From positions 41,740 through 105,739 of the forward strand of contig JAXDTJ010000018.1 in NCBI GenBank assembly GCA_034090015.1: a stretch of 64,000 bases of DNA, read 5' to 3'. The position numbers were made by a program, and so were the translations under genes. Below the pieces are notes generated by a model. It searched no databases. It worked only from the letters and a program-made list of their open reading frames with translations, and was not told the origin of the DNA. Of this stretch, positions 32,201 through 54,872 are shown piece by piece; position 1 is the first letter of the stretch, and every line of letters starts with the position of its first letter. Source of the DNA: Paludibacteraceae bacterium (GTDB lineage: Bacteria; Bacteroidota; Bacteroidia; Bacteroidales; Paludibacteraceae).

Positions 32201-33334
32201 GCATGGACGAACGGCGACATCATCAAGAACCCCGAAGAGCAATACTTCGCAGAATATCAGATGAATACCTCGCCAATTCGATGGTATGGTACCCTATCCA
32301 CGATACGGTACCGCAGCATTTTCTTGGCGCATGTGTCGAATCCTATTCTACTGCAGATTGAGGGCGACCGTTTGGACGATGAGGGACGCACGCTCACGCT
32401 TGAGCAGGGGTGGAACGTAATGCCCTATCTCCTGACAGAGAAGCAGTCGCTCACCGACGCCTTGGCTGACTACTACGACGATGCCTCCGAGGGCGACCTC
32501 ATCAAGAGTCGCGATGCCTTTGCTGTCTTCTCCCACGCAGGCAAGTGGGAAGGCAACCTCACATATATGCAACCCGGGCTGGGGTACATGCTCCGCCGCC
32601 TCGCACCCGACCCCTGTACCTTCACTTACTATACTTATAACCCGTTGGAACAAGGGACAGGAAGCCAGGAGTCAAGAATTAATTATGAATTAAGAATTAA
32701 GAAAAAATCGTTCGAGCGTAGCGGAGATAAGAATTATGAGGGCAACGCAAACAACGTAAACAACGCAAACAACGCAAACAACGCGCAGCCTTACACCTCT
32801 GCCACTACCATGTCGCTCATTGCCACGGTGGAATTGGAGCCGGGAGTCAAGAACCAAGAACAAAGACTAAATGGTTCCAACGATGAGATTGCAGAAACGA
32901 AGGTAATAAGTCTTTCATCCTGTGTCCTTTGTCCTTCATCCAATGAAAGCCTTACCCTCGCTGCTTATATCGGCAACAGGCTTGTGGGGGTCGGTTATCC
33001 GCAGCAGGTAGGGACAACGACAGAAGACGCTATCTTCTTCCTATCTATCGCCGATGGCGCAGAGGTGGCAAGTGGGCAGTGGCCAGTGGCCAGTGGTCAG
33101 GAGGTTAGTGGTCAGATACGCTTTGTCCTTCTCTGCAACGGCGAGCCGGTGGCACACGGCACCCAGACCTTGCCTTATCAACAAGATACGGTGGTGGGTA
33201 CCCTACGCAAACCCTATCGTATCACATTCCATACCATAGACGATATGCAAGACAAGCCGTATAAGATATTGGAAAATCAACAAATATACATTATTCGCAA
33301 TGAAAACAAATATAATATCCTTGGCGTTCATTAG
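23264..33334 (+). CDS. giant (3356 aa) secreted surface protein with FN3-like, carboxypeptidase-regulatory-like and three LamG (laminin-G_3) domains
   Basis: Signal peptide MKNRLFFLCVAMLVACGVTMA. FN3-like FLQWNPTSGSVDSFYVYRS. LamG endings IDEVRIFHRVLSQDNV, LEARLWTKALTQAEL and IDAFTLFEQALP. The frame is uninterrupted for 10 kb. Confidence 0.85.
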   Translation: MKNRLFFLCVAMLVACGVTMADNTWFEEGRNFSAYSLGQGKVHVKVLVFARGGTNNHWATTGNGGSFVYAYSSGNTVYALQYEGDNNYNCENDYKGWVKFQVKSGTVIITNSYGGNNSTTYTPSNGWVNLYLSRTGESNTPTYLEFDWYPPTVLDNRSFDLKATITDTRKYGDTWTHTWYLGSFSGLSLQAPMLYQPVFYSVGEDGQPGHGQVAIPYVVYQEPKSYTTSTTGNTTFICKERTGQLLAKTTDTVQYGFSANFTVVREDKTTTVVTSSKVDIPAFHRIYDFKAEHYVPEGMDSMWYIKTKTTLSWKVRTPWATDIMPMDMFQIQRAYHPDFSDAETLALIPYETGKGTYQWVDDTEGAMKNLRTDTIDMNIYYRVNRVSTTNWGYEGHEWVRTTAIRKNTSLTHFDSDYSNYRKADDFQETRRVLFTLETLTDLNMSYCWDERASIRVRRLAISAVDTIITERVFPGSMVRPLPPDPKRGNPYFSTLYRFDFEDVADIPCCHYEYEVYIDDSQSLLKLDDLYHRYQEPLKLTSLDLYYTDAASIATFRVSDGVYPDRIFLQWNPTSGSVDSFYVYRSTDQRQGGEEIARIAGQHYYIDTDVVPGTVYYYTLMASYLCGGTHQTQFTEQKRGSLSPYGCIRGRITYPNGTGNVGVTVRAEGISGDVASITPNYLYADSTRVVYNSTQDPVSLSGDFSIQMMVKDSDLTIVSGTGHPLLYSTDSTFRLELSGETIRFTMGNQTRLLSLRNEHSQNNDNNIFSLTLTYCAHTQTVTLYRDEQQTATATIPLHNIHSRLRFCCPYSLAPVSSYGVGIDEVRIFHRVLSQDNVRTYSRHALAGDENGLILYYKFDMLSLSDIAIPNIAKMQATDGNGMMAANNALIWDKAKNDDDYRYIHLPGDLITRFEALTDESGNYVLAGIPFANGITYSLTPTAQHGTFRYNGTSSASATITIGNTRPEATAVDFMNTDAVRFSGRILYERSTIPVKGVHFLVNGILATDATGNPVETNESGNFQFELPKAPIRVQAVKDGHCFANDGYLILNGDTLFQPTDNIDAIRFYDRTKVRLIGRIAGGNDQGLLPLGFGLSRNNLGDHICMVLELEGDNAAQIVFDPLDKTLNRLDTTIVHAIDTTQHTDISLQSKRIMIYPDPASGEFFADLFPVKYKVTQLTAQGYSTLTNEKTAMQVIDLTNKLDSQYTYYTDTIQGGAVSRPHQENYDETMVRLGDRTSLAFHDTFRHIYHSPITVTPVQSLYGMEVGYFGVERIAVQRWDGESESQSVALAKEDGTYEYLFGKPIFTEGKYTFNIYAHEDYYYNGDRNLGKHDRVMLHEGEVKIYNGMHSNTEVLTGTLDKDGVCRNMVLRADYPTYTRVDEDAARNIQVTVTYERESHTTEPLRVLVFADRREGTEAISSTTADITLYDILRDPPGSGSFATLSAGASYSASKTWALSVKAGVTLEFEKGVKYAGFVGAVTAVPGLLSAQNYNINTTTPFSIPLVYNYSINKDYSYSYSTTETIRTGSDAYHVGAKADIFMGAVENLYISTCHGMAVLDSLTYLSMAAQKENGTMRHIATARNLQGELRHLVVAPKLTLDMVQDATFCYTQEHILTTVIPKLVAQRNALVLCVDSAAARAKANQEKKRIYYTTMSPDSADFAITRGKGYDFVDPVNNTDNTPEADKVAGINRAILAWTNLIKQNEKEKVNAQYTTDKKTYSVAGGSTLTYSETVTYGSKYNEIPFNLGGSAGASNLSNLWGNAINKTIQTLLQVGGKADSITIESEAPGSKFSFSLKPIANISTQPTYAASEQKSRTYGYTLSPDRFGYMDVQVMRMKDTISDFYQNAEDTLALTGEKANGKLQSYSSFIFRQLAGASRCPWEDADSTLFYQPGTPLSIATARLENPQITIAQREISNVPADQRAIFQIALNNEQTYYTGIGAATLPFELSVMPGSNPNGLKITIDGQPLTSDPLSITLPHGTTIHKTIEVERGQGYDFEDITLLLRSTCDIMEYALAAFSVHFVPAATPVSMPTPHDQWVLNTQSARDSAGYYLPVSIDGFDIHSDGFDHIELQYKPHTASDADWVNICSYYVSDSLYEQASGTKQRIAGSKIDNIRFYGGRDPMEQEYDLRAMAFARYGNGFVTRASEVLHGVKDTRRPELFGTPTPADGILSVGDVLSLRFSEPIAGNLLDEDVNFEVIGTDDVLSLTTSLHFTGEFSCYARTKVTRNMNARPFTIEAMIKPTGNAALQTIFALDNEKEPLWFAWAGDHLEAQIGKVRLQSATVEPILDFTRVALTYNLEDSIARFFVGTQEINYELRIKNYEHSEHSDNSEHSDYSATNAKPSYHSAAQLIWGNNATYDAPFQGDMLEARLWTKALTQAELARYKDCHLTGYERELVAYYPMNEGKGTTCEDKANGATLTLNGTSWVLPEGMSIHLNGAEPICLNGDLLSRSDIEDLTLLFSFKADENLADTSELLHAGKHTMHLTSDALLWRTDSTERRAPGAFADAQWHQLVVAIDRTRNIASLLVDGNTLLATAADDIPAFADSVWTLGQSFRGHIDAFTLFEQALPTYVIERYNNLAPQGDEMGLIAYMPFGQYILQPNGRYELVYSPENARIFRDADGNTVEKHQKLVMNNLTRYTDKKDFAPLRNGNARKKLNFSWASNGDELMININMPDHEINHRNLLLTVQRVEDQHGNAMLSPHTWAAYVHRQQLRWDNPQINYEQQVPGSESQVSSAQPYTFTATIRNHGGTTREYHLNSLPSWLTAQPASGFLAPLETQTITFTVDEGLNIGEYTEYIYLTDDQQLDDRLLLNLHIKATCPWTLDQTELNRSMSLIGQVQIPVENGTIQIDTDSQDMVAAFVGEQCVALAPVRLNQQTKPVTYMTIYGNDSHAGKALRFQLWHAKNGKVYILAPSEDIPFRANECYGCEGTPITLTVTDRQVQLLTLQPGWNWFSLYLKPTYRSDLTRLFCSSDAWTNGDIIKNPEEQYFAEYQMNTSPIRWYGTLSTIRYRSIFLAHVSNPILLQIEGDRLDDEGRTLTLEQGWNVMPYLLTEKQSLTDALADYYDDASEGDLIKSRDAFAVFSHAGKWEGNLTYMQPGLGYMLRRLAPDPCTFTYYTYNPLEQGTGSQESRINYELRIKKKSFERSGDKNYEGNANNVNNANNANNAQPYTSATTMSLIATVELEPGVKNQEQRLNGSNDEIAETKVISLSSCVLCPSSNESLTLAAYIGNRLVGVGYPQQVGTTTEDAIFFLSIADGAEVASGQWPVASGQEVSGQIRFVLLCNGEPVAHGTQTLPYQQDTVVGTLRKPYRITFHTIDDMQDKPYKILENQQIYIIRNENKYNILGVH
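26897..26974. repeat. 78-nt palindromic element in-frame in giant ORF
   Basis: Arms GGAGGTGCGGTCTCCAGGCCGCACC / GGTGCGGTTAGGAGACCGCACCTCC. The left arm is identical to 62935-62959. Confidence 0.85.
30206..30280. repeat. TTAAGAATTATGA words + CACTCCGA words in-frame in giant ORF (LamG domain 2)
   Basis: ATTAATTATGAATTAAGAATTAAGAATTATGAG, then GAGCACTCCGATAACTCCGAACACTCCGATTACTC. Confidence 0.85.
32666..33115. repeat. cluster of five different word-repeat families in-frame in the giant ORF 3' region
   Basis: Five families are present: TTAAGAATT words (32675-32705); CAACGCAAA x~5 (32744-32786); AAGAACC words (32846-32865); the AAGGTAATAAGTCTTTCATCC... copy of the 58204 repeat (32897-32945); and CAGTGGC words (33070-33115). 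Confidence 0.85.
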
Positions 33335-39966: not shown

Positions 39967-40063
39967 ACAATTTGAAAGTTAACAATTTGAAAATTTGAAA
40001 ATGACGATGCAGAATTAATCATTTTCAAATTTTCAAATTTACAAATTTACAAATTTTCAAATT
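39967..40063. repeat. TTTGAAAA-word hairpin between dehydrogenase and GT2 genes
   Basis: TTTGAAAATTTGAAAATGA - loop - TCATTTTCAAATTTTCAAA... Confidence 0.85.
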
Positions 40064-41028: not shown

Positions 41029-41128
41029 CATTTGACAATTTGACAATTTACTATTTTACAATTAACCATGCGGCGCATAGTTGTCAAATTGTAAATTGTC
41101 AAATAGTCAAATAGTAAATTGTCAAATA
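41029..41128. repeat. GACAATTT-word hairpin between GT2 and hypothetical gene (inverted copy of the 35224 family)
   Basis: The loop CCATGCGGCGCATAG is the reverse complement of the 35258 loop. Confidence 0.85.
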
Positions 41129-42334: not shown

Positions 42335-42348
42335 AAAGACAAATCAAT

Positions 42349-42392
42349 AAAGAGGCGGTCTAACAACTCCAAATTAGGCAGTCTCTTTTTTC
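42349..42392 (+). terminator. degenerate terminator-like hairpin after hypothetical gene (left copy of island-flanking repeat)
   Basis: AAAGAGGCGGTCTAACAACTCCAAATTAGGCAGTCTCTTTTTT. The stem is imperfect and a T-run is present. Confidence 0.4.
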
Positions 42393-42454
42393 TTGATTTA
42401 TTACATTTTTTGTGAAAAAGTGTATATTTATTTGCAAATATAAAAAATAAGCAG

Positions 42455-42462
42455 TATCTTTG
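42455..42462 (+). promoter_or_regulatory. -7 box TATCTTTG for LRR surface-protein operon
   Basis: AATAAGCAGTATCTTTGC context, 266 nt before the ATG at 42729. Confidence 0.45.
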
Positions 42463-42496
42463 CATTATAATTTAGTAGCACTTCGCTATTTCCGTA

Positions 42497-42538
42497 GTGT
42501 ATCAGTTTAGACGTTCGTCTAAACTGATACACTTTTTT
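42497..42538 (+). promoter_or_regulatory. leader hairpin 1 + T6 (terminator/attenuator-like) downstream of the LRR operon promoter
   Basis: Perfect 16-bp stem GTGTATCAGTTTAGAC-GTTC-GTCTAAACTGATACAC followed by TTTTTT. Confidence 0.6.
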
Positions 42539-42570
42539 ATGCCTTTTTCATTCTATTTTTCGGTCTTTTA

Positions 42571-42613
42571 GTGTGTAAGTTTAGACGTTCCTCTAAACTA
42601 TCTCACTTTTTTG
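42571..42613 (+). promoter_or_regulatory. leader hairpin 2 + T6, diverged copy of hairpin 1
   Basis: GTGTGTAAGTTTAGACGTTCCTCTAAACTATCTCAC followed by TTTTTT. Confidence 0.5.
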
Positions 42614-42728
42614 TTTAACCTCTTTGTTTTCATCCTAATACATAAAACTATTTAGTCATCAAAAAAAACGATAGAGACACTATTGAGTATAATCATTTTT
42701 TTTAACCATAATAAATCAAATTAAAATT

Positions 42729-45700
42729 ATGAAAAAGCTATTTACAGTATGCGTTGCCTTGGTGGTTGCCATGACCATGACGGCAGAAAACATGACTTGC
42801 TCGGATGCTGCTACAGCAGCACTTGCTTTGGGCGGGGGAGTAACAGCTACTGACTCTGTTACGGTTACAGGCTATGTCTCTGTGCTTAAAGGAGATGTCT
42901 CTACCAAGTATGAAACCCCTCAACAGCAATTTTGCATGGATGACACTAAAGGCTCAAATGCAGAAACATTGCTAATTTATTGGGCGAACATTCCCGAAGA
43001 GTTTCGTGAGTCATTAACCTCCCTCAACGTTGGAGATAAAGTCTCTGTTACGGGGCTATTATGCCATTATGTAAAAAGCGGTGTTTCTATTCCGGAATTG
43101 GTGAACGGCAATGTAAAAATGCTGGAACGTAACGAAGTAGAGATTGACACGCTTGATATGACCACTTGTGAAGTCATTGCAGCGGCAGAAGCGCTGAATG
43201 CCGACGAGTATTTAGATGAGGTGATAATAGTAAGTGGTTTGGTGAGTGCGGTATCCAGTACAAGCGAAAGACAACAGACTTTTGAAATGACTTGTGACGA
43301 TAATAACAAAATTTTTCAAGCGTATAATGTTGCCGTTACAGAGCCTGTTTTTGTAGGTGATTCCGTCATTGTTGTAGGGAAAGTAAAGAACTATAATGGG
43401 ATAATAGAAGCTCACGGAGGAAAAGCATATATCACCAAAAAGGGAGAGGTGAAGCATGGACCAATCGTTGTAACCTCCAATTCGTCCTCCGGCATTTCGA
43501 ATGCATGTTTCACCGCCACTCTTGAGGACGGAACTATTTTAGGATTTTATTCCTATTTCCCTGATTTAGGTTATGACGATGATTTTGTTTTCTGTGGTGC
43601 TATTTCACAACGAACAGAACTAACCATTCCGGATAGTGTTATTTTTAACTCTATTTCTTATCCGGTGACGAAGATAGGATGCTATAATAACGGTAATCGT
43701 GCTTATCAATGTGATTTGAGCAATGCTACAAGTGTAAAATCTGTTATATTACCCTCTACGATAGCTTATATATATGATTTGCCTTCCACAGTTGAAGACC
43801 TCCATATAAATAGTGATGTAAGTTGGTATAATGGAACAAAAACACTACAAAACCTATCCAAACTCTATGTGCCTGCAGACTTGTACAATCCCATTATGGG
43901 GAATGCGAATATGAGAAACTATGTCATTATCCTCGAAGAAGGGCAAGAGCCTATCCGCATCACCATCAATATGACCACTGCCGGCGAATTTGCACAACTG
44001 CTCTTGCAACAGACCGACAATAACTGGTATCATGTGCATGAATTAACCGTAACCGGACCGCTCAATGCTAATGACCTGAATGTATTCAAACGGATGAAGC
44101 AACTACAGAAGTTGGATTTGTCTAATGCGGTGATTGCAGACATACCGAATAATTTTAATGGTGCAACCGGTTATAGAGGTAATAGTTCCGATATGAACCT
44201 ATTGGAGGAATTGTCTTTACCGAGCATAAATAACATAGGCAATTATGCATTCTCCGGATGTAAAAAACTAAAAAGCATCAGTCTTACATCGGTGAATAGC
44301 ATAGGTCAATATGCTTTCTCTTACCTTGGCGCACCGCATATTTCTTTGCCGGAAGGAACAACATCAATAGGGACCAATGCTTTTTACTACAGCAACATCA
44401 CCGGAATCGACCTACCCTCTACGCTTACTTCGATTGGGGATTATGCTTTCGCATATAGTGAATTAAAAAGCATAGAAATTCCATCACCAATTACAGATGT
44501 TAGTGCATATTGTTTTTATGAGTGCGATAGCCTGGTTTCTGTATCGTTACCGATATCCACACAACAAATCAAGTCGTATGCATTCAGCAATTGTGAAAAT
44601 TTGACTGCAATCAATCTTCAAGAACTAATCAACCTAAAGAGCATTGAGAGTTATGCGTTTAACGGATGTTATGCCTTGAAAGAGATAGAATTAGCCGGTT
44701 CCCTTCGTAACATAAATTCCGGAACTTTTGGCGGATGTTATAATATCAAGTCTGTCAAAAGCTACGCTGTAATTCCGCCTTCCGGTAATTCTACCTATTC
44801 TCTATTGGACGGATGTGATTATACGGGAGTAACCCTATATGTCCCTGCCATGTCTATTGCTGCTTATCGTGCAGCAGCCGGATGGAGTGATTTCTATACC
44901 GTACTTCCTTTGGAGGAACAAATAAACAACTTGTATATCTATGATTTTGCGACTATTGCAGATGTCTCTGAGTTTTCGACAGATTGCAATGTAACGTTGG
45001 GCTGGGAATACTTGTCGCGCAACGGTTATTCGAGTATGTTCTATGGTGCATTAACGTACAACGATACCGCTACCTTCTCTATGCACAACTATCGGCAATA
45101 TCAAGATTTAGGAAGTTCTTCGTCTTCTTATCCTTATGCCGTTAATCCTATATTTACTTCGCTCGTGGCGAATGGCCCGATGCGTGCAGATAGTGTACAA
45201 ACAACGCTTATCACAAAATCAACATACGATTGGTACTTCATTTCCTTGCCTTACGATGTGCAGGTGGCGGATATTACTTATTCCGAGGGTGCGCAGTTTG
45301 TTATTCGCAAATACTCCGGCTACAACCGTGCGCAACAGGCAGGAGCTACGTGGCAGAATCTGACGACCGATAGCGTGATGCATGCATACGAGGGGTATAT
45401 CTTGAAATGTAATTTGCAAGATGCTTCGTTTACTTTCCCTGCCATCAACAATGCCCATAAAAACAATATGTTCCAAAAGGGCGATGCCGTAGTGCCGTTG
45501 AATGAATATCTGAGCGAGTTTGAGCATAACCGCTCATGGAACTTGATAGGTAACCCATATCCATGCTGGTACGACTCGCGCTATATGGACTTCTCGGCAC
45601 CTATCAGTGTATGGAATAGGTACTATGATCGTTACGATGCATTCTCTCCCGTTGACGATTCCTTTATCTTGCAACCCTCGCAGGCATTCTTTGTACAATG

Positions 45701-46379
45701 CCCCGTTGACCAATCTTCTATTACTTTCGACCAAGAAGGTCGTCAAGATTGTTGGTACACGCGCGTAAAATCGGATAAGGCTCCCATGCGTGTGGCAGCA
45801 AACGCAAACCGAAAAGTATTCAATATCGTTATGACAAGAGATTCGATAGAGGATCATACGCGTATAGTGCTCAACGATGATGCTTTGCTCGCATACGAGT
45901 TGGATAAAGATGCTTCCAAATTGATGGCTGATAATAATGCTGCTATGTTGCTCTATAGTGTTCACGATGGTGTACGCTATGCCATCAACGAGCGTCCTAT
46001 GGACAACGGAAAGGTAAGTTTAGGTTTCTTTGCACCTGAGGAAGGAGATTTCGAACTCTCTCTCAACACAACAGAAAGTGGCAATGTTATCTTGATGGAT
46101 AGTCTCACCAATACTATGACTACTCTGACCGGCAGTTACCGTTTCCATTCCGTAGCAGGTTACCACAATACCCGTTTAACCCTTGTATTCGAAACACCCA
46201 CCGAACTCAATCGCGCGGTTATCGGCAGCGATGGAAGTCTGTTGCATCAATCGGCTCAAATCTATTCAGTGGATGGTCGATGGATAGGGAATTATTATGA
46301 TGGCTGCATCAACAACTTGAATGCAGGTATTTACCTCATTATCGGACAGGATGTTAAACGCAAAATAATTGTGAAATAA
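42729..46379 (+). CDS. BspA-type leucine-rich-repeat surface protein with T9SS type-A C-terminal domain (1216 aa)
   Basis: Signal peptide. Two N-terminal OB-like modules. LRR units of the form IGNYAFSGCKKLKSISL and IGQYAFS. The C-terminus NLNAGIYLIIGQDVKRKIIVK looks like a T9SS CTD. Confidence 0.8.
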   Translation: MKKLFTVCVALVVAMTMTAENMTCSDAATAALALGGGVTATDSVTVTGYVSVLKGDVSTKYETPQQQFCMDDTKGSNAETLLIYWANIPEEFRESLTSLNVGDKVSVTGLLCHYVKSGVSIPELVNGNVKMLERNEVEIDTLDMTTCEVIAAAEALNADEYLDEVIIVSGLVSAVSSTSERQQTFEMTCDDNNKIFQAYNVAVTEPVFVGDSVIVVGKVKNYNGIIEAHGGKAYITKKGEVKHGPIVVTSNSSSGISNACFTATLEDGTILGFYSYFPDLGYDDDFVFCGAISQRTELTIPDSVIFNSISYPVTKIGCYNNGNRAYQCDLSNATSVKSVILPSTIAYIYDLPSTVEDLHINSDVSWYNGTKTLQNLSKLYVPADLYNPIMGNANMRNYVIILEEGQEPIRITINMTTAGEFAQLLLQQTDNNWYHVHELTVTGPLNANDLNVFKRMKQLQKLDLSNAVIADIPNNFNGATGYRGNSSDMNLLEELSLPSINNIGNYAFSGCKKLKSISLTSVNSIGQYAFSYLGAPHISLPEGTTSIGTNAFYYSNITGIDLPSTLTSIGDYAFAYSELKSIEIPSPITDVSAYCFYECDSLVSVSLPISTQQIKSYAFSNCENLTAINLQELINLKSIESYAFNGCYALKEIELAGSLRNINSGTFGGCYNIKSVKSYAVIPPSGNSTYSLLDGCDYTGVTLYVPAMSIAAYRAAAGWSDFYTVLPLEEQINNLYIYDFATIADVSEFSTDCNVTLGWEYLSRNGYSSMFYGALTYNDTATFSMHNYRQYQDLGSSSSSYPYAVNPIFTSLVANGPMRADSVQTTLITKSTYDWYFISLPYDVQVADITYSEGAQFVIRKYSGYNRAQQAGATWQNLTTDSVMHAYEGYILKCNLQDASFTFPAINNAHKNNMFQKGDAVVPLNEYLSEFEHNRSWNLIGNPYPCWYDSRYMDFSAPISVWNRYYDRYDAFSPVDDSFILQPSQAFFVQCPVDQSSITFDQEGRQDCWYTRVKSDKAPMRVAANANRKVFNIVMTRDSIEDHTRIVLNDDALLAYELDKDASKLMADNNAAMLLYSVHDGVRYAINERPMDNGKVSLGFFAPEEGDFELSLNTTESGNVILMDSLTNTMTTLTGSYRFHSVAGYHNTRLTLVFETPTELNRAVIGSDGSLLHQSAQIYSVDGRWIGNYYDGCINNLNAGIYLIIGQDVKRKIIVK

Positions 46380-49300
46380 TGAAAAAGGTATTTATTGCAC
46401 TATGTCTTCTATGCCTTTATGTAGTTGCATGGGGACAGATTGGTGGCGACTACGATCCCGAGAGTCCTTCCGACCCCGGCACACCGGTGAAGACATACGC
46501 GCTGACGCTCAATGCCACTCCCTCCAACGGCGGTAGTTTCAACACTACTGCAGTCCGTCTGGAAAGCGGAGAAACATACACGATACGAGCATATCCCAAC
46601 ACTGACTATAGGTTCATAGCATGGTTGTGCGAGGGGGATACGCTGTCGAAATCAACAGGCTACACCTACACTATGCCGGCGCACGATGTAAGAATTACCG
46701 GCGTGTTTGAGTATCATCCTGTCTCACCCTCAGACCCGCAACAGCCCGATACCACACGAAAATATCAGTTATTCATAAGCGCCAGTCCCGCGAATGGCGG
46801 TAGTTTCAATATCAGCAACGCCAAAGTGGCAGAAGGCAGTCATAACCAATTGCAGGCGTATTCCAATACAGACTTTGTGTTCAAACATTGGATAATGGGT
46901 GATTCCGTACTATCCACAGCCCAAAGTCTCGATTTCGTGATGCCGAAGCATGATGTACGGTTGGCGGGGGTATTTGAATACAATCCCGGTAACCCGGGAG
47001 ATCCCAATACCAATCCGTGGAATGCAGCAACGGGGGAAGTGATTATAGATGATTTTGTCCCGGGCTATCTACGCAACGCCATCTCTTCCGCTACTGGCAA
47101 CAACAGCAGTGCGGTGCTATCCATTATGGTGGTGGGTATCATGAATAGTTATGATTTTGAAGCCTTTAGCCGCTATAGCAACTGCGCGAACTTGGACTTA
47201 AGTCGTGTGTCGGGCATCACGACGGTACCTTCAAACGCGTTCTCAGCTTCTAACTTCAACCGTGTGGTACTGCCGGCTACCATTGAGTCGTTGGGTTACC
47301 GCTCTTTTGCCAATTGCGCCAACCTCACAAGCATTGTGCTGTATGCTATGACTCCGCCTACGCTCAACACAGACGTATTCAGCGGTGTCTCCGATGGGTT
47401 GCTTGTATATGTGCCGGCAGCGGCGATCCCGCAGTATCAAAATGAAACAGCATGGAGCGGCTTCACCCTATTGCCTATACAAGAAGATATTCTCAATCTG
47501 GAGGTTTCGTTACCGGAAGATGCCGACATTGCCGATTTCACCAATATGTGGTTGGAACTCACCAATACGAAGAACGGTCAGCGGATACATTACGTGATGA
47601 CAGATCGACGCTCCTACACCTTTGCCAACATCATCCGAAATACCACATGGAATGTTACCCTTCGAAACGAAAGGGGGGATGTCTTCGGACAAATACTCAA
47701 TGTGCAGGCACAAGATGAGGATATCAGTGTTTCGTTTACCTCATTATTGAAGCCGCAAAACCTGTCGTTGCGGGTGCTTACTCCCGACAGCGTGGATATT
47801 ACGGAGCAAGTCCAAGTGGTATGGACGGATAGCAAGGGCAATTATCTGGCACAAGCCCGTTCGCTGGTAGGTTTGCCGACGGGATATAGTGCTACCTACA
47901 CGGTTTCTCTGCCGCAACGTCTTGCCATGGTGTATGCTACGCCGCCTTCGGCTACCTGCGTCTTGACTGATGAGAGCAATGAGGTATTTTGTCGGCTATG
48001 CGCCATTCCAAATGTGCATATCTCGGGAACGGTTACCGATGCTTCAACGGGGCTGCCTATGTGCAATGCCACGGTGAGTGCATCGCAAACTTTCGCGGGC
48101 AAGTATAGCAAGACGTTAGGGACGCAAACGGATGCTAAGGGTGTTTACACGCTGGATATAGCCAATGTCCCCACGTCGTTATCGGTTTCCGCATCCAACT
48201 ATGTCAGCCAATCGTGCCGATGCGACTCACTGCTGTCGGGGCAGGATACCGTTGCTATACCCGTTTTTGCGCTACGAACAATCTCGGGTGCTACTATCGC
48301 ACTCGGATTTACCTACACCGATTTAGATGGCAACAGCCAAAACTGGTATCGCGACTACAACAATATAGACTACTCTATCTTCAATCTCACTACCGGAAAA
48401 GCAATTGACCGCTACACGCTGCAGTATCCCCAGATAGTGATTACGGAAGAGGTTGCCGATGGAGACCTGTTGCGCCTGACTGTCACGAGCAGAACCGGCT
48501 CTTTCATGCCGGTTAGTGTGGTGGATACTCTTGCCGACCAAAAAGCAACTGCCACGTTTGATATAGTGGCGTTGGGACGCATCGAATCGTCCTTTGCTTC
48601 TTCCAAAAACTCTACCGTAGCGGGCATTCTGTACGACAGCAACGGGAAATGGATGAATACATACGAATATACCTCCGGCAAGTTGTCGGTCAGCAATCTT
48701 CCCGATGGGCGTTATATCTTGGTAAGCATGGGCAGTAGCCGATTCTTCAATACGATTTATGATTTGGCGAAACTGCCACAAACAGGGCTGGTAAAGGGAG
48801 TGGATTACGTGGAGGACACAGCTGTGGTACGTAGCGGGGAGATAACCACGATTGCAATTAGCGAAGTGCCGACATTGGACGAAAGCAAACTATACTACAC
48901 AGGGGACAAAACCCAGTTCTCTGTGAACAAACCCAGCATTGTGGTGGGCAACTATCTCACCCTCTCGGGTACGATTGATTTCAAGCCGACCTATTCCCAA
49001 AGTGTCAGCAATGTACAGATGATAATAGACCTGCCCGAATCCTGTGAGTTTGTCAGCAACTCTGTGATGATCGGTACGAGTATCGGCAACTATACACTTA
49101 ATGGAAGTCAACTCACCATTCCGCTGATGCACTATACGGATCGGGTGCGTTTCTGCGTTATCCCCACCGAGGGAGGCGACTGTGCGCCGACGGCTTTTGT
49201 ACAGTTTGATCTACAGGGAACATCTATTATGCAACCCATTGGTTCGGCACACGTATCGGTGCAAGATTTGTCTGTTTCCGTTCCTTCTACGGTTGCCAAT

Positions 49301-52300
49301 CCCAGCATTCCGGTAAGCGGAACGGCGGTAGGCGTTTGCGATATCGAGATATTCGATGGCAATGTGTTAATAGGGCAAACCAAGTCATTAGCCAATGGTA
49401 CATGGGCAACCACCTATGAACTGTCTGATGCTTCAAATTTGTCCGTACATGCTATTCATGCTAAGGTGACAACTCAGACAGGAGTTCAATTGATCTCCGA
49501 AAGTAAAAATTGCGTTTATGATATGAACGCCATTGAGTTGATAAAAGTTACTATGTATCATATGAATCCTGAAAAGAATATGCAGACAGCTGTGTATAAT
49601 TTTCAAAATCCTTCTGTCACCCCCAATAAGTGGACAGTATATTACCCAAATAAAGCATTTACATATACAATAGAGTTCACCAACAATTCGCCGACCAAAG
49701 TTTCAAATGTGGTTTTATATGTTCATACTGCCGATAATGAAAAATTACCATTTGCAGCCACATACAACTCAGAGAAAGATTTTTGGTATGTTAATTGCAA
49801 TTTAGGGAATAAATCGGATCAGCACTACCCGATTAATGTGTCTGTCAGTTATACAGCTATTACAGAATTAGACTCTATGGCTACTCTTTCAATTTTTGAG
49901 GAAACTATAAAAAAACAAGACGATTATAATATAGAAATCACAAATGTTTCCGCCGATGAAGATTATTACTATACAGACTATATACATAATGGTTCCAACG
50001 TGGGATTAATTAGCAACTTTTCTACAATTGATACATTACCATGTAGCATTACGCCAATGGTAGATACGGTATTCGACAATTTTAGCATTTATTCAGACAT
50101 TGATTATGTTTCAAATACACTAAACGTATATATTCCAAAACTATCATTGACATATCTTTCAGACATAACAGACACGATTTTAATACAATATCTTGAATGG
50201 GCAGATGAGATTTGTACCTCCAACTTTTTGCGCTTCGCAATCAAAGTAGAAAACCGAAGTACATCTACAAACAACATTAGATTCCGTGCTCCCCTTCAAA
50301 ACTATTTGAGACGCTCACTCTACTTTACAGAACAGATTCTAGGAGCATATGATTCGTACCTAATGGAGAGAGAGGTTAGGGAACGTCTTGAACAGTTAGC
50401 AGATTTGTCAAATAGATTGGATAAGTTGGATTGTATGGACGAAAGCATAAAGGACGACATACGAGATAATATTAATAGATTATTTGAACAATACTTTGAT
50501 ATTAAAGAAACTTCCAACTTAATGCAGGATATGGATAATGAGTTTACTTCTCCGCTATATGCTATAAATTTTGCAGGTGGTTGGCTGGAATTTGCAGCTG
50601 AAATAGGATTTGCAACCCGAAGAAGACAAATATCAAACTTTATCGCAGTATTTGAGAATGCCTGTCCGCCTCCTTTTGAAGGTAATGATGGCGGAGATTA
50701 TACGCCTTACAATCCTGACGATGAAGTACAAATTGACCCCTCCGGCTATGTATATGAAGGGGTGTCGTCCAATCGGTTGGAAGGCGTAACTGCCACTATT
50801 TACTACAAAGAGATGGTGGAAGATATGTATGGTGATTTGCACGAGAACATTGTGAAATGGGATGCAGAAGCGTATGCACAGGAAAATCCGCTCTTTACGG
50901 ATGAGAACGGTTTGTATGCTTGGGATGTACCACAGGGACTATGGCAAGTGAAGTTTGAGAAACAAGGATATGAGACCACCCACTCCGATTGGCTTCCTGT
51001 ACCTCCACCGCAATTAGACGTGAATGTCGCTATGAAGCAGAACGTGCAACCTATGGTGAGAAAAGCCGGAGCTTATGAGGATGCTGTAGAGGTGGAGTTT
51101 GACAAGTATATGCTGCCGGAACAGTTGAACACCGACAATATCATCGTGATGCAAGGCGACAGCATGGTGGCGGGTACCATTCAATTGCTGGACGAGGAAG
51201 TAAGTTATGCGCAAAGCGATATCTCGTATGCATCCAAAGTGCGTTTTCAAGCCGCCGCTCCTTTCTCAGAGCCGATCGTTACGCTTATTGTGAGCAATCG
51301 GGTAAAGAGTTACGCGGGGGTTCGCATGCAAGACAACTACTCACAAACATTCGCTGTAGAGCAGGAAATCAAACAAATCCTCTGCGACTCTGTTAAGAAA
51401 GTGGGGTACTGCAAATCCACTACGCTTAGCGTTCAGGTATTGCCCGCAACAGCGGCGGCAAGAAAAGTGCTGAGGGCGCAATCCTCGTCAGACATGATGG
51501 TCAGCTTGCAAACGACGGAAGCGACTATCGACAACAACGGTCGGGCGGTGTTTACTCTCTCCGGCAATCTACCCGGTACTGCCGCTATCTTATTCGACAT
51601 TGAGGGTACGGATAAAACGGCGCAGACGATGGTCAATGTCGTTCCCGTTGCACAATTGATTCCTACCATCACTGTGGTTTCTGCCGATACGCTGCGGGGT
51701 ACGGTGCATATCGACCAAAAGGTGAATGAGGATAGCATTGCCGTCATCTCTGCTACACCGCTGTTCGGTTACCATTTCACACACTGGAACGATGGCAATA
51801 CCGATAATCCACGTACTATCAAACTGGCGGGCGACAGCACGCTGGTTGCCTCTTTTGACTTGACACGTTTCGGTTTGTGCGGCGATGCACTCTATTGGGA
51901 GTACAGCGACTCGGTAGTGATGGTTACCGGCGCAGGCGAGATGTATCATTTCACCGCCACCACCATGCCATGGCTGCTTCTGCGCGACAGTATCACCACT
52001 ATATCCATCAGCAGGGAGGCAACAACGATTGGAGAAGCCGCATTCTATGGCAGCAACAAGGTGGATACCATCTTCAGTTATGCGCTTGTACCGCCGATAT
52101 GTGGGGATTCCTGTTTCTATCTTGTGCCGCAGGAGGCACAGGTATTCGTACCGAATGGCTCATTGGAAGCGTACAAAGCCGCGGAAGGTTGGAGGTACTT
52201 CTTCCATATCAGCGAAATGGAGAAAATGCCGGAGACAGAGTTGGAACAAACAGAATTTTACCAATGCATCACAAAGTACGTCCGCAATGGAGTGCTGTAT

Positions 52301-52351
52301 ATCCGGAAGGGAAATAGAACCTATAATCTATTGGGAAATGAAGTTAGGTAA
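46379..52351 (+). CDS. giant (1990 aa) surface protein: Listeria-Bacteroides-type repeats, BspA-LRR blocks, carboxypeptidase-regulatory-like domains
   Basis: The start overlaps the upstream stop (TAATG). Signal peptide MKKVFIALCLLCLYVVAWGQ. Two N-terminal GGSFN...F.HW...V.GVFEY repeats and a third, divergent copy near the C-terminus. LRR blocks at both ends. Confidence 0.8.
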   Translation: MKKVFIALCLLCLYVVAWGQIGGDYDPESPSDPGTPVKTYALTLNATPSNGGSFNTTAVRLESGETYTIRAYPNTDYRFIAWLCEGDTLSKSTGYTYTMPAHDVRITGVFEYHPVSPSDPQQPDTTRKYQLFISASPANGGSFNISNAKVAEGSHNQLQAYSNTDFVFKHWIMGDSVLSTAQSLDFVMPKHDVRLAGVFEYNPGNPGDPNTNPWNAATGEVIIDDFVPGYLRNAISSATGNNSSAVLSIMVVGIMNSYDFEAFSRYSNCANLDLSRVSGITTVPSNAFSASNFNRVVLPATIESLGYRSFANCANLTSIVLYAMTPPTLNTDVFSGVSDGLLVYVPAAAIPQYQNETAWSGFTLLPIQEDILNLEVSLPEDADIADFTNMWLELTNTKNGQRIHYVMTDRRSYTFANIIRNTTWNVTLRNERGDVFGQILNVQAQDEDISVSFTSLLKPQNLSLRVLTPDSVDITEQVQVVWTDSKGNYLAQARSLVGLPTGYSATYTVSLPQRLAMVYATPPSATCVLTDESNEVFCRLCAIPNVHISGTVTDASTGLPMCNATVSASQTFAGKYSKTLGTQTDAKGVYTLDIANVPTSLSVSASNYVSQSCRCDSLLSGQDTVAIPVFALRTISGATIALGFTYTDLDGNSQNWYRDYNNIDYSIFNLTTGKAIDRYTLQYPQIVITEEVADGDLLRLTVTSRTGSFMPVSVVDTLADQKATATFDIVALGRIESSFASSKNSTVAGILYDSNGKWMNTYEYTSGKLSVSNLPDGRYILVSMGSSRFFNTIYDLAKLPQTGLVKGVDYVEDTAVVRSGEITTIAISEVPTLDESKLYYTGDKTQFSVNKPSIVVGNYLTLSGTIDFKPTYSQSVSNVQMIIDLPESCEFVSNSVMIGTSIGNYTLNGSQLTIPLMHYTDRVRFCVIPTEGGDCAPTAFVQFDLQGTSIMQPIGSAHVSVQDLSVSVPSTVANPSIPVSGTAVGVCDIEIFDGNVLIGQTKSLANGTWATTYELSDASNLSVHAIHAKVTTQTGVQLISESKNCVYDMNAIELIKVTMYHMNPEKNMQTAVYNFQNPSVTPNKWTVYYPNKAFTYTIEFTNNSPTKVSNVVLYVHTADNEKLPFAATYNSEKDFWYVNCNLGNKSDQHYPINVSVSYTAITELDSMATLSIFEETIKKQDDYNIEITNVSADEDYYYTDYIHNGSNVGLISNFSTIDTLPCSITPMVDTVFDNFSIYSDIDYVSNTLNVYIPKLSLTYLSDITDTILIQYLEWADEICTSNFLRFAIKVENRSTSTNNIRFRAPLQNYLRRSLYFTEQILGAYDSYLMEREVRERLEQLADLSNRLDKLDCMDESIKDDIRDNINRLFEQYFDIKETSNLMQDMDNEFTSPLYAINFAGGWLEFAAEIGFATRRRQISNFIAVFENACPPPFEGNDGGDYTPYNPDDEVQIDPSGYVYEGVSSNRLEGVTATIYYKEMVEDMYGDLHENIVKWDAEAYAQENPLFTDENGLYAWDVPQGLWQVKFEKQGYETTHSDWLPVPPPQLDVNVAMKQNVQPMVRKAGAYEDAVEVEFDKYMLPEQLNTDNIIVMQGDSMVAGTIQLLDEEVSYAQSDISYASKVRFQAAAPFSEPIVTLIVSNRVKSYAGVRMQDNYSQTFAVEQEIKQILCDSVKKVGYCKSTTLSVQVLPATAAARKVLRAQSSSDMMVSLQTTEATIDNNGRAVFTLSGNLPGTAAILFDIEGTDKTAQTMVNVVPVAQLIPTITVVSADTLRGTVHIDQKVNEDSIAVISATPLFGYHFTHWNDGNTDNPRTIKLAGDSTLVASFDLTRFGLCGDALYWEYSDSVVMVTGAGEMYHFTATTMPWLLLRDSITTISISREATTIGEAAFYGSNKVDTIFSYALVPPICGDSCFYLVPQEAQVFVPNGSLEAYKAAEGWRYFFHISEMEKMPETELEQTEFYQCITKYVRNGVLYIRKGNRTYNLLGNEVR

Positions 52352-52463: not shown

Positions 52464-54872
52464 ATGAGAAAAAGAGTTTTTTCACTTTTTGTGGCACTGG
52501 GTACCACATTGAGTCTTCTCGCCTACGACTTCCAATCGGGCGACTTGTACTACACAATCACGAGTAGTACGGACCCATTAACTGTCAGCGTGGCAGCCGA
52601 TGCAGGCGGCAGTTATGCCTCGCTGACCACCGTAACCATCCCCGAGACGGTAACCAACAATGATGTAACCTACAGCGTAACGGGTATCGAAACCAACGCG
52701 TTCAGCGGTTGCACGAACCTTACAAGCGTGGTATGGAACGCCAAGAACTGCCAAAGTTGGGGTTCCTACAAAACGGCTCCGTTTCATAGCATTGCCGCAC
52801 AGATAACTTCGTTCACTTTCGGCGAGGGAGTAGAACTCATCCCCTACGCCATCTGTGACGATATGACGGCTCTCACCAACGTAACCTTACCCGAGAGCAC
52901 GAAAATAATCAAGGGCAGTGTTTTCTACGGTTGCACGGGGCTTACATCCATCAGCATCCCAACCAATGTGGATACGATTGGACTGGATGCGTTCAAGAAT
53001 TGCAGCCAACTGACTTCCGTAACATGGAACGCCAAGAACTGCCGCCCAAACTACTACCAAGGGGCTCTTAGCACGCCTTTCTATGCTATTGTGTCGCAGA
53101 TGACTTCGTTCACTTTCGGCGATTCGGTAGAGTGCATCCCTGATGGACTGATGATGGGGATGTCAAATATCTCCGCCATCACCATTCCCCTTCATGTAGA
53201 TTCCATTGGCGGATGTGATGCGTTTAGTGGTTGCAGCAGTTTGAACTCAGTAGTATGGAATGCGAAGCATTGCAAAACAGTCAAAGTACTAAATAGGACG
53301 TATGACTATGAAATAGGCGAATACAAATACTACTATGATAGTCAAAGTCCCTTCTACGGAGCCGCAGAGCAAATTACTTCTTTCACCTTTGGCGATCAAG
53401 TGGAGAGTTTGCCGGATAGGTTATGTGAAGGTATGAAAAATCTTAGTTCTATCTTGCTACCCGATGGTATCACTGCTATCGGAGAGAGAATGTTCTATGA
53501 TTGCTATGCCTTGTCTGCCATCACAATCCCTGAAAGCGTGCAAAGTATAGGAGAGAGTGCCTTTTCTTCTTGTAGAGGGCTAACCTCTATCACCATACCC
53601 AATAGTGTGAAAAGTATTGGAGGGTGGGCATTTAGTGGTTGCTATGGTATCAAAAAGACCAATTTTATAGGTACGCTTAGCGAATGGTGCCAAATAAATA
53701 CCGGAAGTACGCCGGTAGAGTATTCTCACAATTTGTACCTCAACGATGTCTTACTCACCCACGCAGATATACCGGATGGTGTTACAACCATTCATGATGA
53801 TGCTTTTAATGGAGACACCTGTTTGGTTTCCATCACAATTCCCAATAGTGTAACTTATATAGGAAAGGATGCTTTCGATGGTTGCTACAATGTAGAAACC
53901 GTAATGGTCGGTAATGGCGTAGAAACAATAGATGAGTATGCATTCTATGATTGCAGCGCACTGAAGAAATTCGTTTATGAGAGCCCGCTTGCAGCACCTT
54001 TGGATGTGATTTCTTACAAAGCAGACTTAGACACACTGATAGCACCTGCAACAGTACTAAACACTTATTATATGTCACCTTCTACACATGTCCGTTATAT
54101 CAAGATACATAGCGGAGAGATTACTGAACGGGGTTTTGCTGCATTGCTGGGCAGTTACAAGACTCTGGGCACCATAGACCTTGCCGGAGCAAGCAACACC
54201 GGCATGGCAGACAGGACGTTCTACGAGTGCTACAACCTGACGCAACTCAGCCTGCCCGCACAGTTGGAGGCCATTCCTTACAAGATGATAGCCGACTGCT
54301 ACATGCTGCAGTCTATCACCATCCCTGCTACGGTAACCGAAATCGACAACAATGCTTTTGAGAACTGCCGTAGCCTGCAAACGGTAAACTTTGCAGCGAA
54401 CAATGCACTGCAACGCATCGGCAACTGGGCATTCTACAACTGCCATGCTTTGCAGACCATCAGCATACCCGAGGGCGTAACATACGTGGGCGATGGTGCT
54501 TTCTACGGATGCACCTACCTGACCAACATCACGCTGCCGAGCACTATGCTCGCTATGGGGGACAACAGTTTCGCGCTCTGCTCGAAATTGCAGCAGATGA
54601 ATGTGCGTGCCAACATCCCGCCCACTATCGCAAGCAAGACCTTCTACAACGTGCTCCGCACTATACCCGTATATGTTCCTATGGATGCCGTAGCGCAGTA
54701 CAAAGCCGATACCTACTGGCGCGAGTTTAATATCATCGGTAGCGATGCCCCGTCCGATACGGAGAACGTACTCACCGATGCCGCTACACCCACGCGTATT
54801 GTTCGAGACGGGAAAGTGCTTGTCTATAGCAATGGCAAATGGTACGATATGTTAGGAAATATCGTGGAATAA
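52464..54872 (+). CDS. BspA-type leucine-rich-repeat surface protein (802 aa)
   Basis: Signal peptide MRKRVFSLFVALGTTLSLLA. There are over 15 LRR units (IETNAFSGCTNLTSV, IGESAFSSCRGLTSITIPNSV...). Confidence 0.8.
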   Translation: MRKRVFSLFVALGTTLSLLAYDFQSGDLYYTITSSTDPLTVSVAADAGGSYASLTTVTIPETVTNNDVTYSVTGIETNAFSGCTNLTSVVWNAKNCQSWGSYKTAPFHSIAAQITSFTFGEGVELIPYAICDDMTALTNVTLPESTKIIKGSVFYGCTGLTSISIPTNVDTIGLDAFKNCSQLTSVTWNAKNCRPNYYQGALSTPFYAIVSQMTSFTFGDSVECIPDGLMMGMSNISAITIPLHVDSIGGCDAFSGCSSLNSVVWNAKHCKTVKVLNRTYDYEIGEYKYYYDSQSPFYGAAEQITSFTFGDQVESLPDRLCEGMKNLSSILLPDGITAIGERMFYDCYALSAITIPESVQSIGESAFSSCRGLTSITIPNSVKSIGGWAFSGCYGIKKTNFIGTLSEWCQINTGSTPVEYSHNLYLNDVLLTHADIPDGVTTIHDDAFNGDTCLVSITIPNSVTYIGKDAFDGCYNVETVMVGNGVETIDEYAFYDCSALKKFVYESPLAAPLDVISYKADLDTLIAPATVLNTYYMSPSTHVRYIKIHSGEITERGFAALLGSYKTLGTIDLAGASNTGMADRTFYECYNLTQLSLPAQLEAIPYKMIADCYMLQSITIPATVTEIDNNAFENCRSLQTVNFAANNALQRIGNWAFYNCHALQTISIPEGVTYVGDGAFYGCTYLTNITLPSTMLAMGDNSFALCSKLQQMNVRANIPPTIASKTFYNVLRTIPVYVPMDAVAQYKADTYWREFNIIGSDAPSDTENVLTDAATPTRIVRDGKVLVYSNGKWYDMLGNIVE

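Follow-up and report, generated by a model that had tools for sequence, protein, structure and literature searches.

DNA inversion, as a mechanism of phase variation, is the main route of surface diversification in gut Bacteroidales. Catalogues of such inversions consist almost entirely of invertible promoters, gene shufflons and intragenic inversions. A 2025 review of Bacteroidales inversions covers no types other than promoter, gene-shuffling and intragenic ones, and the word stem "terminat" is absent from it. Likewise, our literature searches on invertible and phase-variable terminators found, among the papers examined, no description of a terminator-type inverton in Bacteroidales. The closest analogue of the putative switch described below is cwpV of C. 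difficile (RecV), in which neither the promoter, located 5′ of the invertible region, nor the ORF is part of the segment that inverts (Emerson et al., 2009, PMC2784873). In one orientation of that segment, a stem-loop with a poly-U stretch after it spans the junction where the left repeat meets the invertible DNA, and transcription terminates prematurely, 60–70 nt from the start (PMC2784873).

Within the Bacteroidales, the Mpi promoters of B. fragilis (capsule PSA–PSH and other loci) serve surface targets and are controlled by a global, trans-acting invertase that is encoded away from the target locus. Their invertible segments, which carry the promoter itself, are ~170–230 bp long. Invertible-promoter segments of B. 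intestinalis measure 183–186 bp (PMC8375218). The repeat of the master invertase Mpi of B. fragilis is ARACGTTCGTN, as quoted second-hand in PMC8375218, where GTTCGTTTAA is given for B. intestinalis. In the EPS locus of B. fragilis (Tsr19 / BF2766), transcription is reduced by inverted-repeat copies that separate the promoter from the genes, and expression correlates inversely with repeat number (PMC4747536). Capsule operons of Bacteroides can also be governed by UpxY/NusG-SP antitermination, which depends on a UpxY encoded in the operon and on an ops-like pause site (PMC11685472).

Here we describe a locus of a Paludibacteraceae bacterium in which the DNA between the cores of two leader hairpins inverts and the promoter stays outside the inverting segment. 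We consider it probable that the region is an invertible-terminator phase-variation switch. The window, that is, the whole stretch of DNA that was analysed, has a length of 64 kb, and all coordinates below are window positions.

Results

Architecture of the locus

The features of the region are listed below in the order in which they occur.

42341–42399, + strand: intrinsic terminator of the upstream gene, an imperfect hairpin followed by T6 (fold −17.2 kcal/mol, z = −3.84; inverted repeat I4)
42431–42462, + strand: fixed promoter outside the invertible segment, with a −33 TTTG (42431–42434) and a −7 box TATCTTTG (42455–42462), located from the sequence and the cassette alignment
42474–42490, + strand: small 5′ leader hairpin with a 6-bp stem and a 5-nt loop (87.5–90% of cells paired in the paralogues)
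42496–42538, + strand: hairpin 1 (site 1 plus an 8-bp outer stem) followed by T6, a predicted orientation-dependent intrinsic terminator (17–18 bp, −25.5 kcal/mol, z = −8.65)
42504–42525, + strand: recombination site 1, AGTTTAGACG-TT-CGTCTAAACT, a 10-2-10 palindrome with its centre at 42514–42515, recognised from the sequence and from the same site type bounding inverted segments elsewhere
42526–42577, + strand: invertible inner segment (52 nt separating the site cores, 74 nt centre to centre), T-rich here; its exact reverse complement is found in the sister strain L068, and it is homologous to the inner segments of 9 paralogues in either orientation
42570–42612, + strand: hairpin 2, imperfect, followed by T6 (−11.5 kcal/mol, z = −3.43)
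42578–42599, + strand: recombination site 2, AGTTTAGACG-TT-CCTCTAAACT, with its centre at 42588–42589 and one arm mismatch; recognised from the sequence and identical in L068
42729–54872, + strand: the operon under putative control, encoding three BspA-type leucine-rich-repeat surface proteins (42729–46379, 46379–52351 and 52464–54872; Pfam LRR_5, Flg_new_2 and CarbopepD_reg_2)

The upstream ORF ends at 42334 and is followed by its own hairpin + T6 terminator. This signal shows that hairpins with T-runs close genes in the source genome, and because the upstream gene has its own terminator, the promoter at 42431–42462 opens a new transcription unit. The −33 TTTG precedes the −7 box by 20 nt, a spacing usual for Bacteroidetes promoters. 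The consensus of these promoters, TTTG/TAnnTTTG, is quoted in PMC4747536. The surroundings of the promoter (~70 nt) are kept in all of the 10 aligned cassettes of the family described below, with an invariant TTTGC, AAAAAT and C.TTGC core of the −7 box.

The leader that carries both hairpins is ~260 nt long. Its small 5′ hairpin (42474–42490) has been kept between the window and L068 by changes on both sides of the stem; as a guess, it might be a 5′ stabiliser. The operon downstream spans ~12 kb, and its ORFs of 1216, 1990 and 802 aa are all intact. Homologues of the second gene product bear a T9SS Por_Secre_tail domain. Homologues of the first BspA gene at ~55% identity (P0013, P0033 and P0034) have no cassette upstream and hence provide no test of orientation.

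Pfam scans of 36 ORFs of the window detected neither a NusG/UpxY-like or KOW protein nor a recombinase, in agreement with the initial annotation of this DNA, which had reported that no antitermination factor is encoded here. With Rfam 15, there were 0 matches at gathering score across the whole window, and an E-value scan of 42380–42760 gave only sub-threshold chance matches to miRNA hairpins (E = 0.07–0.4).

Two hairpins in the leader

The initial annotation had described two hairpin + T6 units 74 nt apart after the promoter, the first with a perfect 16-bp stem, and had drawn both as intrinsic terminators. The two units are present in the sequence as described (42496–42538 and 42570–42612), and the complementarity of the first extends even further, to 18 + 18 nt (42496–42513 with 42516–42533, 100%) around a 2-nt centre. 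The stem of hairpin 1, GTGTATCAGTTTAGAC-GTTC-GTCTAAACTGATACAC, occupies 42497–42532, and its T6 occupies 42533–42538. Among the terminator-like sites found in a 16-kb scan, hairpin 1 ranks first (17 pairs including 6 G-C, a 4-nt loop and the tail TTTTTATGCC); it has the G+C-containing stem, the short loop and the directly following U-tract of an intrinsic terminator. The right outer arm and the T-run (42526–42538) are part of the invertible segment. In an alignment of 10 sequences with ~3 independent stem types, the outer stem of hairpin 1 shows compensatory changes at four pairs, with 95.5% of cells paired. The hairpin cores are invariant in sequence, and covariation is confined to the outer stem.

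Hairpin 2 is a diverged copy (42571–42606, with T6 at 42607–42612). The start-to-start distance of the copies is 74 nt, and they are 84% identical over 44 nt (copy 42569–42612). Allowing up to 2 mismatches, TTTAGACNNNNGTCTAAA occurs 2 times in the window against an expectation of 0.14, so the hairpin pair is not a product of chance. The stem of hairpin 2 is interrupted, and this hairpin was not called by the 16-kb terminator scan. Its outer part is mostly unpaired across the cassette family, and the T-run after site 2 is missing from all other family members. The reading as an intrinsic terminator is supported for hairpin 1 by its full set of sequence features and its compensated outer stem. 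Hairpin 2 with its T6 is not a terminator that the family conserves, its T-run being unique to this species and its outer stem mostly unpaired elsewhere. Since the T6 of hairpin 2 lies in the fixed downstream flank, both orientations carry it, and it is present in L068 too. Hairpin 2 with its T6 would be at most a weak constitutive attenuator.

Inversion of the segment between the hairpin cores

Over 6.6 kb, the sister strain L068 shares 99.4% identity with the window; the counterpart of 42526–42577 (52 nt) in this strain reads as the exact reverse complement. A second case is the L014 orthologue, which was found on 13 independent pig-gut contigs, nine of them in the T-rich orientation (state A) and four flipped. 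The flipped contigs are the exact reverse complement over the 71 nt from one site centre to the other. Eight of the 13 contigs have no mismatch in either flank; in the remaining five, the left flank (162 nt) has 1–12 mismatches, and the right flank has none in any of the 13. The k-mers used in these assemblies (111–127) are longer than the segment, and both junctions must therefore exist in the reads. Between two MAGs (L007 and L023), a 280-bp segment enclosed by sites of the same type is inverted within orthologous outer flanks.

Comparison among paralogues gave the same picture of two orientations. Seven of the 10 short cassettes with both sites are in state A, as is the window, and three are in the opposite state B. 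When the inner segments were aligned to that of L016 (self score 51), scores of +16 to +43 were obtained in the matching orientation and −17 to −24 in the opposite one. These observations show that the two hairpin cores are the recombination sites of a mini-inverton, and that the segment inverts at the same locus. The initial annotation had suggested attenuation or control of the NusG/UpxY type; this proposal gave way to inversion, as the segment is inverted in L068 and across the 13 pig-gut assemblies and the cores are recombination sites. The 52-nt segment contains no TAnnTTTG in either orientation, and the promoter typical of classical invertons is thus not found in it.

Contigs L026 and L027 from Logan, which start exactly at 42504, were considered as a sign of heterogeneity and dropped, because fold-back chimeras at the perfect 38-nt palindrome explain them equally well. 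L026 runs through site 2 unbroken.

Recombination sites and candidate recombinase

Sites of the site 1 type bound the inverted segments in L068, in the pig-gut contigs (L054–L066) and in L007/L023. Across the family, the sites have the form AGTTTAGACG-NN-CGTCTAAACT, the fixed arm of site 2 often being CGTTTAACCT, and at every locus the arms form inverted repeats. Partner sites have complementary central dinucleotides (AC/GT, GT/AC or AA/TT) in 11 of 11 other MAG elements, at the pig-gut locus and in L068. Such complementarity is the signature of the 2-bp staggered crossover made by serine recombinases (Hin, Gin and resolvases). In the sites of Hin and Gin (hix and gix), palindromic half-sites flank a 2-bp crossover whose polarity sets the orientation of the site.

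Site 1 holds AGACGTTCGTC, which fits the Mpi repeat consensus. A scan of JGI metagenomes with GTTTAGACGNNCGTCTAAAC returned 5 loci, four of which are seemingly chance or unrelated matches, and only L031 is informative. It encodes a 195-aa recombinase that matches the family NF009949 "master DNA invertase Mpi family" (E = 1e-74, 250 bits, with a curated cut-off of 272), and the gene ends 113 nt from TGTTTAGACG-AA-CGTCTAAACA. Other Mpi homologues adjoin type V pilus operons and have AACG-AA-CGTT cores nearby. As no recombinase is encoded in the window, the enzyme, like Mpi, must be trans-acting; judging from the sites, it is most likely a trans-encoded serine invertase of the Mpi family. The link to Mpi rests on site similarity and one gene adjacency (L031).

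The initial annotation had offered a pair of operators for a dimeric repressor as another possibility. This idea comes near the mark, as the sites are palindromes of the kind bound by dimeric proteins, although the binding partner is most likely the Mpi-family invertase and not a repressor. A bound recombinase could also serve as a roadblock.

Consequences of inversion for the leader transcript

The part of the transcript that is altered by inversion is the 3′ flank of site 1. In state A, the invertible flank complements the fixed 5′ flank and is followed by a T-run; the pairing is GTGTATC/GATACAC at the window locus and TGCAAC/GTTGCA or GCGTC/GACGC elsewhere. The stems in state A have 15–20 bp and −20 to −27.5 kcal/mol with T-rich sequence after them, while those in state B have 10–12 bp and −4.6 to −12.1 kcal/mol across the cassettes, with A-rich sequence after them. 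At the window locus, the values are −25.5 kcal/mol plus U6 in the window versus −12.8 kcal/mol and then UAAAAGACCG in L068. A T-run occurs 3′ of site 1 only in state A in all 10 cassettes, and the stem is also extended in nine; the exception is L012, whose state A lacks the extended stem. As in cwpV, the promoter is external, and the stem-loop with a U-tract is found at the junction of repeat and segment in one orientation only (L012 excepted).

We infer from these features that state A would be OFF by way of the terminator and that state B would be ON by read-through. In the proposed mechanism, the fixed promoter (42431–42462) would transcribe the leader across the two palindromic sites (42504–42525 and 42578–42599), and a trans-encoded recombinase, most likely the Mpi-family serine invertase, would flip the ~74-bp stretch between the site centres. 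In state A, the state of the window, pairing of GATACAC with GTGTATC would enlarge the site-1 palindrome to an 18-bp RNA stem directly followed by U6. The resulting intrinsic terminator, ~70 nt past the start site, would turn the 12-kb BspA operon OFF. In state B, the state of L068, the stem would be limited to the core of ~10 bp and be followed by UAAAAGACCG, and RNA polymerase would read through into the operon (ON). The flipped A6 of L068 is able to pair with the fixed U6 of hairpin 2, and the ON state at the window locus may still be attenuated via hairpin 2 and its U6.

A family of promoter–leader cassettes

A scan with AGTTTAGACNNNNGTCTAAACT, using one genome per species, returned 24 loci. 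Half of these (12 of 24) lie in four Bacteroidales MAGs, namely LOHA31_bin.011 and PUUB51_bin.022 of the Paludibacteraceae and the Bacteroidales HGM05423 and SUG649; the remaining loci are lone matches scattered over unrelated phyla, in a number close to the chance expectation. LOHA31_bin.011 has at least 5 cassettes, and at least 10 paralogous cassettes precede surface-protein genes in the Paludibacteraceae/Bacteroidales MAGs.

The conserved cassette of ~230 bp consists of the promoter region (~70 nt), the small leader hairpin, palindrome 1, a pyrimidine-rich linker and palindrome 2. Its polarity is constant, and each copy faces a signal-peptide surface-protein gene directly downstream. The domains of the target proteins include Big_2, Big_3, the InlB B-repeat and CHB_HEX_C/Fn3, and one target is a lipoprotein with an OMP barrel and an S41 peptidase. 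The element of L007/L023, 302 bp long, has the same sites and resembles the classical invertible-promoter type of Mpi. Two other classifications of the repeat were tried and rejected: a CRISPR-like mini-array, since the "spacer" is conserved between copies and found in two orientations, and a REP/MITE-like repeat as the primary reading, since the promoter is always included and a surface-protein gene is always faced.

The T-tracts of the inner segment are regularly placed, being centred near 21, 32, 44 and 54 nt from the site-1 centre in all cassettes and at ~22, 32.5, 44.5 and 54 nt in the window. All four are present in the window and in L016, with spacings of 10.5, 12 and 9.5–10.5 nt. A-tracts in phase with the helix bend DNA. 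The inner segment may accordingly be intrinsically curved, which would allow synapsis of sites only 74 bp apart; in the proposed mechanism, the four T-tracts, phased at ~11 bp, probably pre-bend the short segment for this purpose. Intrinsic curvature would likewise account for a degree of linker conservation that exceeds the needs of a terminator. The T-tracts possibly serve mainly for DNA bending and not for termination.

The allele of the window

The site centres are TT/TT in the window versus AA/TT in L068. The two strains have 10 differences within ~50 nt (42465–42515), in a patch that ends exactly at the centre of site 1; none falls within the right arm of site 1, within the inner segment or within site 2. 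Elsewhere, 40 differences were counted in 6600 nt of genes and 4 in the 263 nt further upstream. This patch is most simply read as the trace of one exchange with a paralogous cassette, or as a gene-conversion tract, ending on its right at the crossover point. Such an exchange would have made hairpin 1 a perfect 18-bp palindrome and would have given both sites equal polarity. An exact inversion of a larger interval of L068 that includes the site centres was also considered as the origin of the window allele and does not fit in a hand comparison.

With a serine recombinase, the equal polarity of the TT/TT sites means that inversion should be blocked and deletion alone allowed. We lean, by a little, towards the view that the window strain is locked in the terminator (OFF) orientation. 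Such a lock, if real, would seem to be a recent one, given that the ORFs (1216, 1990 and 802 aa) are still intact.

Discussion

Alternative explanations

The hairpin + T6 units within a 260-nt leader could be taken as two constitutive terminators that are conditionally overcome by attenuation or by NusG/UpxY-like antitermination, with no DNA rearrangement. Hairpin 2 and its T6 are indeed independent of orientation here, and factor-dependent read-through could act at that point. We regard this explanation as very unlikely, because the segment with one half of hairpin 1 and the T-run has the reverse orientation in the sister strain and at related loci. The window has no NusG-like gene, and the first gene of the operon encodes an LRR protein and not UpxY. 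No Rfam family is matched, and the cores are invariant in the manner of protein sites, with covariation only in the outer stem. Invariant half-sites, perfect 10-2-10 palindromes and their repetition just 3′ of the promoter would equally suit operators for a dimeric transcriptional repressor, present twice, next to which the T-runs would be incidental. However, the DNA between the palindromes is inverted in nature with breakpoints inside the palindromes, their partner centres are reverse-complementary, which is a constraint of recombination and not of an operator, and the sites match the repeat of the Mpi invertase; the operator explanation is highly improbable.

Two further readings concern the role of the element. 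An inverton whose output is not termination could act on mRNA stability or translation or through a cryptic promoter, or the ~70-nt transcript of state A could be a functional small RNA. Termination is a prediction, a promoter followed by 70 nt and a terminator is built like a small-RNA gene, the inner segment is conserved among paralogues beyond the needs of a bare U-tract, and TATTTTTC at 42554–42561 within it matches 7 of the 8 positions of TAnnTTTG. Yet the full −7 consensus is absent in both orientations, and phased A-tracts together with shared ancestry explain the conservation of the inner segment equally well. The outer stem covaries, and the T-run follows site 1 solely in state A in 10 of 10 cassettes, with an extended stem in nine (not L012). 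Another output is thus unlikely. The multiplicity of the cassette (at least 5 copies in LOHA31_bin.011) and the seemingly recombination-disabled TT/TT allele of the window would be expected of a selfish or decaying dispersed repeat, such as a REP/MITE-like element or a relic of a two-repeat CRISPR-like array, with no regulatory role here. Against this stand the constant polarity of the cassettes, the inclusion of the promoter and the position directly 5′ of signal-peptide surface-protein genes. Moreover, the "spacer" is conserved between copies, unlike in CRISPR, and the downstream ORFs (1216, 1990 and 802 aa) are intact, so that a mere dispersed repeat is hardly credible. The reading that we prefer remains the invertible-terminator switch.

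Comparison with known systems

The external promoter, the junction terminator in the putative OFF state and the large surface-protein target are shared with cwpV. The latter differs in its 21-bp imperfect repeats 195 bp apart, its tyrosine recombinase and its Firmicute host. At the window locus, hix-like 10-2-10 palindromes of the Mpi type are placed 74 bp apart in a multi-copy family of Bacteroidales, and the recombination site itself is the stem of the predicted terminator. With the Mpi promoters of B. fragilis, the element has in common the ARACGTTCGTN core, the surface targets, the Bacteroidales host and, most likely, a global trans-acting invertase. There, however, the promoter is part of the invertible segment, whereas the window locus has a fixed promoter outside a segment that is ~3–4 times shorter and carries terminator determinants. 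The EPS locus may be regarded as a looser relative: inversion there is carried out by a tyrosine recombinase and moves the promoter itself, and the attenuation arises incidentally from surplus repeats and not from a dedicated flip of a U-tract. A long hairpin-bearing leader before a long surface-structure operon in Bacteroidales is also characteristic of UpxY/NusG-SP control, but the window locus has neither a upxY gene nor an ops-like pause site.

Hin and Gin invert segments of ~1–3 kb and need an enhancer bound by Fis. For the window element, no enhancer or accessory factor was identified. A switch of this kind would pose the mechanistic question of how a serine invertase brings about synapsis of sites 74 bp apart. 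The arrangement also recalls the synthetic "transcriptor" logic, in which an asymmetric terminator is flipped between a fixed promoter and a gene by large serine integrases.

Implications

Tentatively, and with slightly less than even confidence, we suggest that the window element is the first recognised member of a family of miniature natural "transcriptors" in Bacteroidales. The family would comprise invertons of ~74 bp in which the recombination site is the terminator stem, phased A-tracts pre-bend the DNA for synapsis by a serine invertase below one persistence length, a portable promoter–leader–switch cassette has spread before many surface-protein operons, and TT/TT alleles are phase-locked variants. 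If this is true, a crossover-to-crossover length of ~74 bp would place the elements among the shortest invertons known, and the TT/TT alleles would be natural phase-locked variants generated by exchange ending at the crossover point. Current inverton finders, which seek promoters between repeats, would miss or mis-score such elements. A compact natural part of ~100 bp with one recombinase would also be available for recombinase logic in the engineering of Bacteroides.

For the window strain, the proposed switch predicts that the 12-kb operon of BspA/T9SS adhesin-like proteins is silent, and that it is expressed in the sister strain L068. Leader hairpins with T-runs before surface-protein genes of uncultured Bacteroidales would have to be read as possible ON/OFF switches, and the scoring of such operons in metagenomes and metatranscriptomes would change accordingly. 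The flip of a terminator downstream of an external promoter, documented earlier only for cwpV of C. difficile, would add a fourth class of inversion to the phylum.

Promoter region and leader of the proposed switch

A 10-nt inverted repeat upstream of the BspA operon (42433-42464) consists of TGCAAATATA and TATCTTTGCA and places a second box on the opposite strand:

42442-42433, minus strand: TAnnTTTGCA box TATATTTGCA, adjacent to the operon promoter and facing away from it

This box may be a divergent promoter, or may merely represent the -33 region. In the leader of the sister strain L068 (state B; around 366-430), the A6 of the flipped segment falls just 5′ of hairpin 2. Pairing between this A6 and the fixed U6 3′ of hairpin 2 is predicted to give one long interrupted hairpin, which may either weaken termination at hairpin 2 or strengthen it. 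Between the window and L068, which are 99.4% identical, both sides of the small leader hairpin have changed and its stem is still paired. The region 42465-42515 is a mosaic patch with 10 differences in ~50 nt between the two strains, and its right end is exactly the central dinucleotide of recombination site 1.

Two Logan contigs from independent k=31 assemblies (L026 and L027; SRR5008275 and SRR21357857) both start exactly at 42504. Each breaks at the first 31-mer to extend beyond the 38-nt palindrome 42496-42533. Fold-back library chimeras at this perfect palindrome could account for the breaks, and so could heterogeneity at site 1.

A larger inverton and duplicated cassettes

A second inverton, whose ends are the same type of recombination site as those of the mini-inverton, was found in two MAGs:

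L007, 6431-6754, and L023, 3748-4072: larger inverton, ~302 bp centre to centre

The flanks are orthologous in the two MAGs and the inverton lies in opposite orientations, with SusE/F-like and SusC-like genes downstream. As its inner segment carries a promoter-like TGTCTTTTGCAC directed outward across one site, the element is probably a classical invertible promoter, and it is probably served by the recombinase of the mini-inverton.

At the paralogous cassette loci L004, L011, and L016, the first genes after the cassette encode surface proteins with a near-identical signal peptide (MKKFTLLLSAMLLACATNLWAGE or similar) that are otherwise different. The shared signal peptide suggests that the duplicated unit may extend beyond the cassette into the 5′ end of the gene.

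Other features of the window

Three further features are located upstream of the operon:

39969-40063: 8-nt tandem repeats filling the intergenic region before the GT2 gene
41030-41128: 8-nt tandem repeats filling the intergenic region before the 401-aa gene
23264-33334: 3356-aa ORF, sole Pfam match Laminin_G_3

The tandem repeats comprise ATTTTCAA (5.4 copies, 94% matches) and TTGTCAAA/ATTTGACA (4-6 copies). A TAnnTTTGCA box at 22931 precedes the 3356-aa ORF; a search of the window with a threshold of 15 of 20 matches gave no site of the mini-inverton type for this ORF.

Recombinase genes and inverted repeats at other loci

In ruminant and pig gut Bacteroidales (L043-L053), Mpi-family recombinase genes directly adjoin type V (Mfa-like) pilus operons (DUF3575, DUF5119, and Mfa_like_1), and AACG-AA-CGTT cores are located at the recombinase stop codon or just 3′ of it. 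The contigs that carry them are in many cases very short, a pattern that assembly breaks at invertible DNA would be expected to produce.

Upstream of a BspA homologue (55% identical) in L033 and L034, a different pair of repeats adjoins a Phage_int_SAM_5/Phage_integrase gene:

L033/L034, about 1910-2150: 20-bp inverted repeats CTCTCTATGTAAGAGATACT / AGTATCTCTTACATAGAGAG, ~190 bp apart

L035 and L036 encode the same BspA-homologue protein behind another upstream region, which is without these repeats. By this comparison, homologous BspA/T9SS operons in other species seem to be phase-variable by means of a different, tyrosine recombinase inverton.
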